Notes: a model not told the origin generated them from the sequence alone. 24,000 nucleotides of DNA from Lolliginicoccus lacisalsi (GCF_014841105.1 NZ_JACYWE010000001.1:205517-229516); one strand, 5' to 3'. Shown: positions 6,626-15,279, counted from the first letter of the stretch. Numbers and translations are program-made.

Positions 6626-6674
6626 AGTGCACTAAACGACAGCTCCATCGCCGAAACCTGTCGTTTTTCGCACT
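6626..6674 (+). repeat. family-B hairpin repeat, copy B1
   Basis: agtgcactaaacgacag (6626-6642) pairs with ctgtcgtttttcgcact (6658-6674), with an internal 3-nt mismatch. The loop ctccatcgccgaaac carries the conserved CGCCGAAAC motif. Confidence 0.8.
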
Positions 6675-6854
6675 GTCACGGGTCGAGGAGCGGGCGTCCA
6701 CCACACGACTGTCTGGACACGCACTCCGATCATGTCCAACACGCCGACGCAGCGCGTGTTCCTCCCCGGGATGCACTGATACCCGCTGGTAGCCTCGGCT
6801 GCACTGCCAGCACCGCGAGGGGGTGCTGGTGCACAACGCATTCCGGGGGATTGC

Positions 6855-7280
6855 ATGCCTGTCACTATTCTGCCGGCGCCTGTCGCGGCATTTCCGCCGT
6901 TGGCGCTCGCGGTCCGGCTGCTCGACGATATCCATGTCTTCGCGGAGGTCCTGCGGAAGGTGCTGCCCCAGCTCGATGATCTGCTGGCGATGGGCCGGGA
7001 CCTGGCGACGAACCTGGAGAAGGCACTGCCCATGCTCGAGGAGCTCAACGGCAACATGGGCGGGGCGATACCGCATGTCGGTTCGCTCAATGGGCATCTC
7101 GATACCGTGGTGCCGCTGATGGCGTTGCTGGACGTGCGGGCGGGGCTCAGCGGCTTGAGCTCCCTGACTCCGATCGATGGGGCGTTCGACCGGCTTGGGC
7201 GTGTGGTTGATCGGCTTCCAGGTGCGCGAATGGTCGATCGCCTGCCAGGATGGCGCAGGGAAGCTGCCGCGACAGCGTGA
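6855..7280 (+). CDS. hypothetical helical protein (141 aa)
   Basis: GC3-rich codon usage. It ends 21 nt before the next gene on the same strand. Contains a tandem RVVDRLPGA/RMVDRLPGW duplication near the C-terminus. No family recognised. The overlapping minus-strand ORFs are Ser/Arg/Pro-rich and look spurious. Confidence 0.45.
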   Translation: MPVTILPAPVAAFPPLALAVRLLDDIHVFAEVLRKVLPQLDDLLAMGRDLATNLEKALPMLEELNGNMGGAIPHVGSLNGHLDTVVPLMALLDVRAGLSGLSSLTPIDGAFDRLGRVVDRLPGARMVDRLPGWRREAAATA

Positions 7281-7301
7281 TCAATCGACAAGGAGCCTGG
7301 C

Positions 7302-12220: not shown

Positions 12221-14481
12221 CGGTGCCGATGGTGCAGGCGTGGGATCCTGGCACGTTCGCGCGCGCCTCGCGCGTGATGGCCGACCGTGCTGATGCGTTG
12301 TTCAACCACGGCAAGCGCCTTCGCGACGCGTTCGACGCTCTTGGGGAGCAGTGGGATGGCGCCGCGCACACGGCCGCCGATGATCGCGCGAACGCCGAGT
12401 GGGGGCACGCCAAAGCAGTCGCGGTTCGAGTCGAGGAGACCGCGGACTCTCTCGCGCGGGCGACCTACGACCTAGGCAGCACGTGCGAGGCATTGCAGGC
12501 GCTCCTGCTCGATGCTCCCCGCAAGCGGCTGCTGGTCCGTGACGACTGGACCGTCACCGCGCTTGATCCAGAATCCCAAGCCCTGGCCGTGGCGGAGGCG
12601 CAGCGCATCACGGGACTCCTCGCTGATCTCGAGGCATTCGACGCGACGCTCGCCGCCGCGCTCACCAGCCTCGCCCGTGACGTCGACCAGCTCACCCCCA
12701 CCGACACCGGTATCACCCCGAGCGATTCCATCGAGCTCGCGAACCGGCTCCGCGCCGAGCTCGGCTCACCACTCGGCATCACGCCAGCGCTCGCTGCGGA
12801 GATCGGCGAGCACCTCGCCCAGCTCGGGCTCTCGCCTGCCCAGCTCGCCGCCACGGCCGCCGGGCAACCTGTCTCCCTCCCACCGGACCAGCTCGGTGCG
12901 CTGCGCGCATTCTTCACCGAGACCAGCGGTAGCGACCTCCGTAGCCTCTCGTGGCACTACGACAACGAAGCCGACCCAGGGGGCGATGAGCACCACACCG
13001 CGCTCGCCAATGCCCTGCTCCTCGTGTCGAATGAGCAGATCGGCGCGGGCCTCGACCACCATGGCGAGCTGCGCAGCCCCGGCGGATACCAGTATGTGCC
13101 CGACGATATCCGCGAGGCGCTCGCGAACCGGCGCGACGACGGCCTCCCCGGCATGACCACCGTCAAGCCACTGGCAGATCTACTTGCGACAGCTGATCCG
13201 CAGTACGCGCCCGGCGAGGAGCTCGGCGCCCAGCTCGTCCACGCCGCCGCCCCCATCGGAGCCCTCTCCGTCGAGGCCGAGCAGCTCGACGGACGCAACG
13301 CCACCCTCGAGTACCCGTTCCACAGGGACTACCCGGAGATCTCCGACACCCTGCTAGACGTGGGCCTGCGCAACACCGACAGTGCTGCCGCCATCCTCAC
13401 CGGCACCTACAGCCACGGCGCCGACCTGCCGTCCTACGACCGCGACACCACCGTTGCCCAGCTCCTCCTCCACGGTGGATCATCCGCCACCCCGCTCATC
13501 GACTGGATCGCGGACGACGCCACCAGCCCCGACCACGACACCGCCACACGCGCCGGCCAATCCGCCCACGGGCTCGCCCAGGCCATCGGCTCCGACACAA
13601 CCGGGATCGGCGGCAACAACCACCACGCGTTCCTCAACGTCCCCCACCACGACAACCACGCGATCGGCCACACCAGCCCCGAGACCACCCGCGCCATCGC
13701 CAACGCGCTGACCCCGTATATTCCGAATATGGGCCAAGTGAACCCAAACCTTCTTGCCACCGATGGATTTGGTGCAGTGTCACATGGAGAAGCTGTCCGA
13801 ATATTCTCGGTCATCGATAGCAATGCTGATGTGGCGGCAGACTTCAATGCCCGGGCATATCGATCTGTTTCTGACCTCGAAGTCATCTATATCGAAAGCC
13901 TGGTGGGTGGTAATGGAAATCGACACACTGACATCGGCAGCTACATTGGATGGATTCAAGGATATATTGAGCACGGCTATATCGTCGAAGCCGAGGATCG
14001 ATCCGAGGGCATTCTGTCAGCTGCCGCTTCGCAACGCGAAGCCATAGAGCGCGCTTCGACTATCGTAGGTTCCACCCTATCCTTTGCTCCTTATGTTGGG
14101 CCAGCGATGAGTGGCGCCAGCGCACTGCTTGGCGAGTCACTGCCTAGCCGAATCGCAGGCAATGTTGAGCCGATATACACTGGCGACATGATCAACTCAG
14201 ATCAAACAATAGCTCGGCACACCTACAATGCAATCGTGACGCTCGACGGCCTAGGGGCGATCTCGCCAGACACTAGACTGGATGCGTTTCGATCAGGTAC
14301 GGGTGACTTTCTTCCTTACAGTGAGGCGATCCTAGTCGACAATCCGCATAATAATGCACTGACTGGTAGCGCCAAGCTCGACTCGATTTCAATAAACTAC
14401 CTCACTGACAACGGATTCCCCATCTCCGATTATACTCAACGAATACAGAATGCCCGCCTAGAGATCGGCAAACTTAAATGA
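12211..14481 (+). CDS. large WXG-type (putative T7SS-signal N-domain) modular protein, 756 aa; alternative start at ATG 12229
   Basis: The N-terminal ~100 aa form a helix-turn-helix hairpin with W-x-G at GEQWDGAAH (nt 12352-12360), as in WXG100-like secretion domains. It overlaps the stop of the upstream small gene. The rest is long, helical and Ala/Leu/Asp-rich. The C-terminal third is encoded by low-GC DNA. Confidence 0.7.
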   Translation: MGLTVPMVQAWDPGTFARASRVMADRADALFNHGKRLRDAFDALGEQWDGAAHTAADDRANAEWGHAKAVAVRVEETADSLARATYDLGSTCEALQALLLDAPRKRLLVRDDWTVTALDPESQALAVAEAQRITGLLADLEAFDATLAAALTSLARDVDQLTPTDTGITPSDSIELANRLRAELGSPLGITPALAAEIGEHLAQLGLSPAQLAATAAGQPVSLPPDQLGALRAFFTETSGSDLRSLSWHYDNEADPGGDEHHTALANALLLVSNEQIGAGLDHHGELRSPGGYQYVPDDIREALANRRDDGLPGMTTVKPLADLLATADPQYAPGEELGAQLVHAAAPIGALSVEAEQLDGRNATLEYPFHRDYPEISDTLLDVGLRNTDSAAAILTGTYSHGADLPSYDRDTTVAQLLLHGGSSATPLIDWIADDATSPDHDTATRAGQSAHGLAQAIGSDTTGIGGNNHHAFLNVPHHDNHAIGHTSPETTRAIANALTPYIPNMGQVNPNLLATDGFGAVSHGEAVRIFSVIDSNADVAADFNARAYRSVSDLEVIYIESLVGGNGNRHTDIGSYIGWIQGYIEHGYIVEAEDRSEGILSAAASQREAIERASTIVGSTLSFAPYVGPAMSGASALLGESLPSRIAGNVEPIYTGDMINSDQTIARHTYNAIVTLDGLGAISPDTRLDAFRSGTGDFLPYSEAILVDNPHNNALTGSAKLDSISINYLTDNGFPISDYTQRIQNARLEIGKLK

Positions 14482-15203
14482 CTCCACCGCGAAACTCATA
14501 CACCTTCTTACTAGGTTCTCTAGCAGCATCAGCAATCCTCGTAGGATGTAGTTCAGGTAGCGTCGCGAACGACTTCGTCGATAAATGCATGACCGAGCCC
14601 GTGCCCGGAACTGCCCTTCTTCACGGCCTGGTTGGCGACCTCGAGGACTCCGAAGGGCTTGCCGGCATGACGGGAACCCTCGACCCCTACCTTGATGCTG
14701 AAGGAAAGCTCCTATCGCTCGAGGTCGGCATTTCAGTTGACAATCCAGTCAATAACGCGCTGACCGGATATGCGAAACTCGATGCTGCTCTCGTCAACTA
14801 CCTCACGTCCATCGACTATCCGCACCATCCGTTCGCCCTGGCGTACTCGAACCTGCGCGATGTGACACTCAACGGCCAGGAACTGCTCCCCGACGACCGG
14901 ATCCTGTACGCGCTCGCGGAGGCCAACGAAGCCGAACTGGCCGGCCCGAGCGCGGAGTTCCGCGACTTGCTGCCCACCTCGGCAGCGCTCGACCCGTTCC
15001 GCAGCACCGAGGGTGTCCTCGTGCCATTCGAGGATGCGATCGCCATCGCCAACCCCACCGACGACCCGATCATCGGCCACACGACCCTGACCCGCATCCT
15101 CACCGAGCACTTCACGCGCCTCGACATCCCCGCCCACGTCCTCGTCGATACCTACCGCGAGGCCACCACCGACTGCGTGCCCGAGGCCCCTCAAGGAGAG
15201 TAG
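14478..15203 (+). CDS. lipoprotein (241 aa) with two copies of a ~52-aa module shared with the upstream protein
   Basis: ATGA start/stop overlap with the upstream gene (14478-14481). Signal peptide plus lipobox: MTPPRNSYTFLLGSLAASAILVG-C (Cys24). Confidence 0.75.
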   Translation: MTPPRNSYTFLLGSLAASAILVGCSSGSVANDFVDKCMTEPVPGTALLHGLVGDLEDSEGLAGMTGTLDPYLDAEGKLLSLEVGISVDNPVNNALTGYAKLDAALVNYLTSIDYPHHPFALAYSNLRDVTLNGQELLPDDRILYALAEANEAELAGPSAEFRDLLPTSAALDPFRSTEGVLVPFEDAIAIANPTDDPIIGHTTLTRILTEHFTRLDIPAHVLVDTYREATTDCVPEAPQGE

Positions 15204-15228
15204 CGCCAGAGCGCAAGAGGCCCCACGA

Positions 15229-15279
15229 GTGTGCGAGAAACGACACTGCCAGCGCCGAAACCTGTCGTTTTTCGCACAC
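15229..15279 (+). repeat. family-B hairpin repeat, copy B3 (intact); probable bidirectional terminator
   Basis: gtgtgcgagaaacgaca (15229-15245) pairs with tgtcgtttttcgcacac (15263-15279): 17 bp with one G.U in + sense. The 17-nt loop is ctgccagcgccgaaacc. It sits between convergent stops at 15203 and 15309. Confidence 0.85.

Follow-up and report, generated by a model that had tools for sequence, protein, structure and literature searches.

A lineage-restricted family of REP-like hairpins in Lolliginicoccus lacisalsi is the target of an IS30-family element and, at a minority of copies, borders accessory cassettes

Genes and hairpins at the locus

The window, a 24,000-nucleotide stretch of the L. 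lacisalsi genome (G000), was compared with the congeners G001, G002, and G003 and with G124 from another genus. It carries three copies of one imperfect palindrome, B1 to B3, none of which was assigned to a strand. An earlier sequence-only reading had placed three hairpins of the same family at these sites, and it was right in this as well as in the neighboring gene content: a UvrA-like ABC ATPase, a 141-aa protein, LEH, UDG-like, PIN, HTH_17, EspA-like TPR, and DUF6390 genes, and a set of hypothetical genes. B1 (6617 to 6683; 53.6 to 55.2 bits) is intact, with the 17-nt loop gctccatcGCCGAAACC, and lies in the divergent gap between the UvrA-like gene (minus strand) and the 141-aa gene (plus strand). 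B2 is split into a left half (7793 to 7825), comprising the left arm and 10 loop nucleotides and ending in a TGC target duplication at 7823 to 7825, and a right half (9112 to 9146), comprising the TGC duplication at 9112 to 9114, the rest of the loop (cgaaacc), and the right arm. B3 (15221 to 15287; 69.8 bits) is intact and is flanked by the convergent 241-aa gene (plus) and DUF6390 gene (minus); it sits within a 5.1-kb block specific to G000, about 20 nt from the right edge of that block. The extents given for B1 and B3 are those of the nhmmer and covariance-model matches. Orthologues of B1 and B2 occur in G001 at C1:719775 and C1:720977, the latter uninterrupted, and no hairpin was found in G001 or G003 at the junction corresponding to B3. 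The window contains an 18-nt core, GCCGAAACCTGTCGTTTT, at exactly three places, always on the plus strand; none of 100 shuffles contained it.

The hairpin itself is real, but the 17-bp stem first described is too short: the arms are 22 to 25 bp long and the element spans about 67 bp. The loop, put at 15 to 17 nt, has 17 nt in each of B1 to B3, once the insertion sequence and one TGC are removed from B2. The loop half GCCGAAACC is invariant among B1 to B3 only, loops being variable across the family, and the common orientation of the three copies stands with the proviso that the loop alone gives the nearly symmetric hairpin a direction.

Block 1, between B1 and B2 (6684 to 7792, plus strand), holds the 141-aa hypothetical gene (6855 to 7280), whose plus-strand frame is borne out by the substitutions relative to G001, 26 of 30 of which are at third codon positions, and an LEH/SnoaL gene (7302 to 7760); the block is found in both G001 and G003 at 89 to 91% identity. 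Block 2, between B2 and B3 (9147 to 15220, mixed strands), encodes a 110-aa protein, UDG-like, PIN_3, and HTH_17 proteins on the minus strand and an EspA-like TPR_23 protein and the 241-aa protein on the plus strand. Its G+C content is below that of the genome, with a dip to 0.52 to 0.58 at 13.6 to 15.0 kb. As proposed from the sequence, the hairpin-delimited blocks are variable among relatives: G001 retains block 2 only up to 10168 and lacks 10169 to 15305, G003 retains it only up to 9523 and lacks 9524 to 15302, and both rejoin at about 15303 to 15306. In addition, a 22-kb defence island in G003 sits exactly at B1, between two hairpin copies, and the 5.1-kb G000-specific block has a hairpin beside one edge only.

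A lineage-restricted palindromic repeat family

Genome-wide counting and mapping, which the sequence-only reading had called for, identified about 52 full copies in G000 in addition to the split B2, with a family size of about 50 to 60 copies per genome and the consensus CGCGAGTGTGCGAAAAACGACA, a 17-nt spacer, and TGTCGTTTTTCGCACACTCGCG. A strict pattern matched 30 sites in G000, 48 in G001, and 29 in G003, and none in reversed-pattern controls, in G002, or in 37 other genera; the family was thus found in three of the four genomes searched in the genus (two of three sister species). A covariance model run against 121 genomes of the bacterial family recovered the same three genomes and a variant in G124, whose arms have changed at four or five positions, the changes on one side being matched on the other, as expected of compensatory stem change. 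Double-change cells numbered 116 against 56 in shuffles, a value reached in 0 of 500 shuffles. The arm motifs GTGC and CGAC are invariant, and across 30 orthologous pairs the arms are 87 to 90% identical, the loops 67.5%, and the outer stem 68%. Arm sequence and arm complementarity are therefore conserved, while the spacer drifts and occasionally flips, with one clear case of loop inversion.

Most copies are single, and nearest neighbors lie at least 0.4 kb apart in direct orientation. B1 to B3 belong to a dispersed palindromic family with tens of copies in three congeners, not to a set of three chance hairpins, and the family is REP-like in the broad sense of being numerous, extragenic, lineage-restricted, and mostly located at gene 3' ends. 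No match was found in the window with Rfam 15 at gathering score, or to the hairpin in PLSDB plasmids. Solitary half-sites outside hairpins were not enriched (GAGTGTGCG, 14 versus 7 in the control), so a dispersed operator motif is unlikely.

Families of this kind can consist of nonautonomous elements spread by a transposase, as RAYT-type REP/REPIN sequences or as MITEs derived from an insertion sequence. Such an origin would agree with the patchy distribution (three of four congeners and one other genus), with copy numbers that differ among species, and with the physical association of an IS30-family element with the repeats. We nevertheless consider it highly improbable. The RAYT/IS200-like gene suggested earlier did not materialize: PF01797 (Y1_Tnp) gave no match in the whole 99.99% complete G000 genome, and matched 6 of 14 control genomes. 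Neither a GTAG nor a CGTC tag was seen at the ends in the 97-copy consensus or in per-column composition, and the copies are singletons, with no inverted doublets (REPIN) or BIME arrays found. Sites with a copy in G001 and none in G000 are ragged intergenic indels of 100 to 130 nt that lack a target duplication, and the insertion sequence interrupts the hairpin where a mobilizing element would be flanked by hairpins.

An IS30-family element inserted at the loop centre

The element that splits B2 at its loop centre (7826 to 9111, plus strand, 1,286 bp) is complete, with perfect 28-bp inverted repeats (7826 to 7853 and 9084 to 9111) and a 3-bp TGC duplication. Its transposase ORF (7869 to 9104, 411 aa) matches Pfam HTH_38 (3e-13) and rve (2e-11), and a single transposase with an N-terminal HTH and a DDE (rve) domain, inverted repeats of 20 to 30 bp, and a duplication of 2 to 3 bp place it in the IS30 family, as does the annotation of related plasmid copies as IS30 family transposase. 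Its closest relatives come from Leifsonia and Leucobacter, and a search of public assemblies for the exact transposase returned no record.

This element was found inserted only at the loop centre of the hairpin, with a 3-bp duplication. G000 holds a single copy, and contig C27 of G003 is exactly 1,286 bp long and 100% identical to it. The five G003 copies, seen as ten contig ends, each show an arm and exactly 10 loop nucleotides followed by the end of the insertion sequence; the 3-bp duplications at the ten ends can be paired consistently, and three of the five sites are uninterrupted hairpins in G000. An element in G001 that is only 70% identical occupies the same loop position, so that all seven insertions (7/7) of the element and its one diverged relative coincide, and distant IS30 relatives are also located in palindromes. 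We propose that the hairpin may be harmless to interrupt and would, for that reason, offer the element a safe landing pad.

Two further relationships between element and hairpin were considered and rejected. Targeting of the inverted repeat, in which the hairpin mimics abutted ends of the insertion sequence, was set aside when alignment of IS end and hairpin half scored no better than shuffles (P ~0.8 to 0.9). The same lack of significant likeness, with the ragged indels and missing duplications described above, led us to reject a MITE derived from an IS30-family element. A 5-nt in-register TCGCA coincidence is all that is left between IS end and hairpin.

Genomic placement and probable everyday role

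Based on codon-periodicity strand calls, 49 copies were distributed over 22 convergent, 19 tandem, and 8 divergent gaps, an approximately twofold enrichment of convergent gaps over their 21% background, and at least one gene 3' end adjoins 41 of the 49, mainly within about 100 nt. For at least 35 of the 50 copies in G001, and more on inspection, G000 carries a hairpin at the syntenic position, and the G+C bias of hairpin flanks genome-wide, used as a sign of accessory or low-G+C DNA, was not significant (P = 0.11 to 0.17). Together, the 3' intergenic and orthologous position of most copies and the absence of G+C bias limit cassette partitioning to a minority of the family. The sequence-only reading had named an even spread over ordinary intergenic regions, with flanked blocks syntenic in all relatives, as the mark of a plain terminator family; half of this applies, since most copies do lie in ordinary, syntenic 3' gaps, but the blocks described here are variable. 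Given that most copies sit just 3' of genes and are orthologous, with arms conserved well beyond loops, we regard the family as mainly a stable REP-like element.

Its everyday role is probably that of a symmetric, two-way transcript-end hairpin, either terminating or RNA-stabilizing, as has been proposed for REPs. The position beside gene 3' ends points in this direction. Against it stand B1 and about 8 of the 49 copies, which occupy divergent gaps, and a simple terminator scan in which the hairpins are not flagged. In codirectional contexts, G-U and A-C mismatches on the transcribed strand are about equally frequent (35 versus 37), and thus do not point specifically to RNA over DNA. A simpler view would be that the hairpins are plain intrinsic terminators, bidirectional, independently evolved, and alike by convergence. 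The 3' placement, the convergent enrichment, and the synteny of most copies would all follow, and the inner stem CGACAG...CUGUCG is succeeded by U5 on either strand, with a predicted RNA folding energy of -27 to -37 kcal/mol. However, this U-run lies inside the extended stem, an external U-tract is absent, and a terminator consensus scan does not flag the hairpins. Convergence does not explain why some 50 loci have the same 15- to 25-nt arm sequence and an exact 17-nt spacer, nor does the terminator view fit a family that is absent from one congener and 37 other genera searched, a member in a divergent gap (B1), or neighboring copies that are duplicates of each other. We consider plain, independently evolved terminators very unlikely.

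Accessory cassettes between hairpin duplicates

The proposal that same-orientation hairpins stand at cassette borders was extended beyond the window, where accessory cassettes again lie between direct hairpin duplicates. At least seven loci hold accessory blocks that lie between duplicates, whole or half, of the local hairpin, half duplicates being counted from the loop centre, where identity blocks often begin. In G001 the cargo comprises a TacA/GNAT plus DUF6226 cassette (132-bp repeat), a LysE cassette (74-bp repeat), a YgaP-like gene (98-bp repeat), and a Na/H exchanger; G000 has two loci of the same arrangement, and the 22-kb island of G003 is bracketed by a 34-bp repeat consisting of the right half and 13 nt of flank. 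The LysE block is missing from G000, G003, and the outgroup G002 and is hence an insertion, the only cassette whose polarity the outgroup settles. Adjacent hairpins in direct orientation resemble each other more than expected in their loops (10.25/17 versus 6.76; permutation P = 0.0002), and half-identity exceeds the 95th percentile of random pairs in 10 of 24 adjacent pairs. A minority of copies therefore mark points of insertion or deletion of accessory DNA, and the inserted blocks lie between direct duplicates of either the whole hairpin or half of it.

In the window, B1, B2, and B3 may likewise all derive from a single hairpin at this locus, duplicated during the addition of blocks alongside it, which would account for their common orientation and common right half (the invariant loop half and right arm). 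The bracketing repeats vary from 34 to 132 bp, sometimes including unique flank, and no single known mechanism fits them. The absence of Ku weakens a model in which DNA is captured by Ku-dependent end joining.

Dedicated site-specific recombination, with a trans-acting recombinase inserting and excising circular cassettes at the hairpin in the manner of integrons or Xer/dif modules, would be consistent with unrelated cargo between same-orientation hairpins, no recombinase with a Pfam match being found in any cassette examined, with identity blocks that often start at the loop centre, and with GTGC and CGAC motifs that stay the same in two genera, as contacts with a protein would be expected to. 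Against it, the PF00589 search, which covered tyrosine recombinases alone, yielded only three matches (C15:689-728 kb), none near the hairpins examined and 460 to 500 kb from the window (C15:205-229 kb); Y1 transposase is absent. Such a system also predicts hybrid hairpins with different loops, yet neighbors have common loops and even common unique flank, repeat length is inconstant, and most copies are stable orthologues. We therefore regard it as quite unlikely, and the attC/integron analogy drawn in the sequence-only reading fails for lack of an integron integrase, on the distance of the three tyrosine recombinases, on loops common to neighbors, and on block genes that face both ways.

A different possibility, which we hold to be doubtful, is that the hairpin is a site of DNA breakage or recombination, at which the loop centre is cut or exchanges strands, so that foreign DNA is captured and the whole or half palindrome duplicated. 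The cleavage point would be the same as that used by the IS30 transposase, and the invariant GTGC and CGAC would be putative recognition sites of a host or mobile enzyme. If true, this would constitute integron-independent cassette acquisition in high-G+C Gram-positive bacteria.

Interpretation and significance

Overall, we think it likely that B1 to B3 are members of a REP-like family whose loop is an IS30 target, a minority of whose copies stand at cassette borders, and which would act at transcript ends and be multiplied locally by duplication. REP-like repeats have been well studied in proteobacteria and are poorly described in actinobacteria, and the family offers a compact test case for the spread and persistence of RAYT-less repeats. 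The exact loop-centre safe harbour for the IS30-family element could be a natural site-specific integration tool for these bacteria. Repeated insertion of accessory genes beside duplicated hairpins, among them toxin-antitoxin genes, transporters, and a 22-kb defence island, is a testable lead on how cassettes without a recombinase enter the chromosome. If only the ordinary part of our interpretation holds, the finding is still useful for annotation, as it describes a family of repeats that is targeted by an IS and marks variable loci.

Comparison with known systems

P2-like phages and enterobacterial plasmids reportedly carry palindromes that edge swappable cargo and are targets of IS30-family elements (Nilsson et al. 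2004, Mol Biol Evol 21:1, as cited in PMC6379469); those border palindromes are given as 24 bp long, whereas the hairpins here are much longer, differ in sequence, and occur in a different phylum. Resemblance to attC sites lies in imperfect palindromes with a variable centre that border promoter-poor accessory cassettes in one orientation. Unlike in integrons, IntI, attI, and Pc are absent and the GTTRRRY core was not seen. Cassette genes lie in both orientations, most copies stand outside arrays, and neighboring hairpins duplicate one another instead of being specific to a cassette.

Minimal mobile elements of Neisseria are whole-gene cassettes without a detected recombinase that occupy the same gap in different strains (Saunders and Snyder 2002, via PMC3898611), and are exchanged by homologous recombination in conserved flanking genes with no need of a boundary repeat (PMC3898611). 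The cassettes here are likewise whole-gene units, with no recombinase detected, in a gap between conserved genes, but their junctions coincide with a specific, duplicated hairpin.

IS30 of E. coli targets hot spots that are nearly palindromic and makes a 2-bp duplication (PMC9333248). Like it, the element in B2 has an HTH_38 plus rve transposase, short inverted repeats, and a 2- to 3-bp duplication, prefers palindromic targets, and inserts at the symmetry centre. It differs in that it targets a repeat family of the genome, whose 17-nt spacer receives every insertion at a single exact position, and in that two IS lineages use the same site; unlike in IR-targeting, the similarity of IS ends to the target is not significant.

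REPs with a RAYT are defined as 20- to 40-bp palindromes that have the tetranucleotide GTAG (or CGTC) as a tag on one of their ends (PMC3733652). REP/BIME sequences of Enterobacteriaceae and Pseudomonas are targets of IS1397, ISKpn1, ISPpu9/10, and ISPsy8 (Tobes and Pareja 2006, PMC1525189), and the REP-targeting families given are IS3, IS110, IS4, IS256, and IS5 (PMC1525189). The present family differs in its 67-bp unit with fixed spacer, its single copies, its lack of tag and RAYT, and its targeting by an element of the IS30 family. Whereas REPs in Pseudomonas are a sign of old, stable DNA and do not occur in islands (PMC3390384), some copies here bracket islands. In common with REP/BIME, the present family is made up of extragenic palindromes that are confined to certain lineages, number from tens to hundreds, and lie at the 3' ends of genes; they serve as highly specific landing sites, with all IS copies inside the repeats.

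Structure and distribution of the hairpin family

The three family-B repeats lie in the window where the sequence-only reading had placed them, and an 18-nt core common to all three occurs there three times, always on the + strand, but in none of 100 shuffles. Their palindromic nature was correctly recognized but their extent was underestimated: the full element, an imperfect palindrome, spans about 67 bp, with arms of 22-25 bp (consensus CGCGAGTGTGCGAAAAACGACA) and a spacer that measures exactly 17 nt, rarely 18, across the family. B1 (6617-6683) and B3 (15221-15287) are intact, and B2 (7793-7825 plus 9112-9146) is split by an IS, its loop returning to 17 nt once the IS and one TGC are taken out. 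The outer left arm (GCGAGTGTG...) is often found as a partial extra copy 15-25 nt upstream of hairpins, as at window 7755-7800 and in two fetched loci (L138:1250-1300 and L129:1270-1312), and may represent a scar left there by earlier rearrangements.

A profile search of the source genome (G000; 3.45 Mb, 68.6% GC, 24 contigs, the window being C15:205517-229516) recovered about 52 full copies in addition to the split B2, and Rfam returned no match to the hairpin. A strict pattern matched 30, 48, and 29 times in G000 and the congeners G001 and G003, respectively, with no match in the congener G002 or in 37 other genera, and none for the reversed control pattern. When 121 genomes of the taxonomic family were searched with a covariance model based on 64 copies, G000, G001, and G003 were again recovered, together with a weaker variant in G124, a member of a different genus, whose sister hairpins (loci L163 and L166-L175) have arms of CGCGAAAGTGCAACTRCCGAC and again a 17-nt spacer; counting both strands, the model matches this 5.6-Mb genome at least 27 times. 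Compensatory stem changes, for which such a model had been suggested as a test, were found between the two variants, which differ at four to five arm positions altered on both sides, with 116 double-change cells versus 56 expected (a value that none of 500 shuffles reached) and with GTGC and CGAC invariant in the arms of both. Inside the genus, variation consists mainly of A/G or T/C transitions in the A/T tract, which give G-T or A-C mispairs, and compensations are few.

The window also carries a second, unrelated repeat family (family A), two segments of which (3187-3265 and 4039-4116) bracket a GPP34 gene. Matches to both, at 77-88% identity, number in the dozens in G001 and G003, which makes family A another genus-wide dispersed repeat.

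Placement, conservation, and possible role

With flanking gene strands called from codon periodicity, 49 copies were assigned to 22 convergent, 19 co-directional, and 8 divergent gaps, against a background of 21% convergent among all gaps, and most copies lie about 100 nt or less from a stop codon. B1 is an exception to this placement: the 141-aa + strand gene on its right is real, given that 26 of its 30 substitutions relative to G001 fall at third codon positions, and B1 therefore occupies a divergent gap. About 50 hairpins from G001 were mapped to G000 together with flanking sequence; for at least 35 the syntenic position also holds a hairpin, and inspection added several more. Among 30 orthologous pairs, identity was 87-90% in the 15-nt arm cores, 67.5% in loops, and 68% in the outer stem, and hairpin flanks showed no GC deviation from the genome. 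Synteny, arm conservation, and unremarkable GC together indicate that the family is for the most part stable and under constraint, and belongs to ordinary intergenic DNA. The proposal of a REP-like family bordering variable blocks is thus partly right: such borders exist, but most of the family is stable. Of 31 loops, 20 are conserved with their orientation kept and one is clearly inverted (locus L126 versus G000:C3:15351, 13/17 matches inverted versus 4/17 direct), where the arms are unchanged and the spacer has flipped between them.

Judging from placement, predicted RNA stability (folding at -27 to -37 kcal/mol), and analogy with REPs, the everyday role of the hairpin may be that of a two-way transcript-end structure. 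A simple terminator scan was negative for the hairpins, and mispairs showed no strand bias favoring RNA over DNA. A search for a REP-associated RAYT elsewhere in the genome had been suggested; the genome contains no Y1 transposase, which excludes RAYT-mediated spread. A MITE origin of the hairpin is not supported.

Cassettes flanked by duplicated hairpins

The region from the UvrA-like gene to the hyp cluster varies between relatives. In G001 the order is B1, block 1 (the genes between B1 and B2), an intact B2, a 110-aa gene, and a UDG-like gene, followed directly by the DUF6390 gene, so that 10169-15305 is missing, B3 included; G003 lacks 9524-15302. At exactly B1, G003 also has a 21.9-kb insertion with a hairpin copy on each side, a defense island of about 22 kb (G003:C10:174499-196503; loci L119/L120) that encodes a DEAD/MZB helicase (1732 aa), an Eco57I-type methylase, AIPR, a UvrD-like helicase, a McrB-like AAA_5 ATPase, and an HTH_17 protein, and in which Pfam detected no recombinase. 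GC drops to 0.49-0.52 at the island centre. The two hairpins of the island differ in their left halves; over 34 nt on the right, which take in the loop's right half, the right arm, and 13 nt of adjoining unique sequence, they match perfectly.

Low GC is also seen in the window at 13600-15000 (0.52-0.58 versus 0.69 for the genome), covering the 3' part of an EspA-like gene and the start of a 241-aa gene within the 5.1-kb block specific to G000. The window block has an HTH_17 gene, as does the G003 island; in the window, its ORF overlaps that of PIN_3 (longest-ORF calls, 10204-11442 for PIN_3 and 11228-11821 for HTH_17, both on the - strand), with provisional starts.

Comparable arrangements occur elsewhere. 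G001 has a TacA/GNAT plus DUF6226 block with 132-bp repeats on both sides (absent from G000 and G003), a LysE gene flanked by 74-bp repeats that are the hairpin alone, a YgaP-like gene flanked by 98-bp repeats, and a Na/H exchanger between hairpins with common right halves, and G000 has two hairpin-bracketed loci, both on contig C3. At every one of these loci the other species carries a single hairpin and lacks the block, and the LysE block is an insertion, since it is also absent from G003 and the outgroup G002. Loops resemble each other more closely when their hairpins are separated by under 10 kb, and the resemblance is always in direct orientation (mean 10.25/17 versus 6.76 for all pairs; permutation p = 0.0002), and half-identity exceeded the 95th percentile of random pairs in 10 of 24 adjacent pairs versus about one expected. 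B1, B2, and B3 are therefore likely local duplicates rather than independent arrivals, which would explain why they share GCCGAAACC and the right arm in one orientation. Across these loci, DNA lacking a recombinase has been inserted next to a hairpin, in association with whole or partial duplication of that hairpin.

An integron-like system making hairpin cassettes, as the earlier analogy with attC implied, is unlikely: the only three tyrosine recombinases all lie 460-500 kb away, and neighboring hairpins have their loops, and even unique flank, in common, a pattern that recombination joining two different sites would not yield. Ku is absent, weakening the case for capture by cruciform cutting, fill-in, and end-joining. 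The duplications could possibly arise by Campbell-type integration, in which an incoming circle would bring its own copy of the local hairpin region, or by template switching at a stalled hairpin.

An IS30-family element targets the loop centre

The element within B2 (7826-9111; 1286 bp) ends in perfect 28-bp inverted repeats and is flanked by a TGC duplication. The HTH_38 and rve domains of its 411-aa protein place it in the IS30 family. G000 has one copy. In G003 the IS is collapsed into one 1286-bp contig, 100% identical to that of G000, and at ten contig ends a hairpin arm is followed by exactly 10 loop nt and then by an IS end; the ten ends pair as five insertions with consistent 3-bp duplications, and G000 has an intact hairpin, free of the IS, at three of the five sites. 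At B2 both genomes carry identical copies of the IS within flanks of only 86-92% identity, and the duplicated triplets differ (TGC and CGC), which points to recent, independent insertions. In G001 another member of the hairpin family carries, at the same point in its loop, a different IS30-family element that is about 70% identical. The nearest relatives of the IS are in Leifsonia and Leucobacter, and distant ones (Leifsonia, Citricoccus, Streptomyces, Nocardia) also lie between palindrome arms. A related IS30-family element in Amycolatopsis melonis (locus L077, NZ_JBDZYD010000004.1) lies between direct repeats of about 40 bp instead of 2-3 bp, which recalls the long duplications beside hairpin cassettes.

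Comparison with known systems

It is well supported that this new REP-like family without a RAYT is the exact target of an IS30-family element, which enters at the loop centre. The known preference of IS30 for nearly palindromic hot spots (PMC9333248) is here sharpened to the exact loop centre of a hairpin, and IS30 joins the families reported to target REP-type repeats, namely IS3, IS110, IS4, IS256, and IS5 (PMC1525189). Both the RAYT-less REP-like family and its targeting by IS30 are new instances of known phenomena; the unusual part of the finding is the cassette insertions that duplicate the hairpin.
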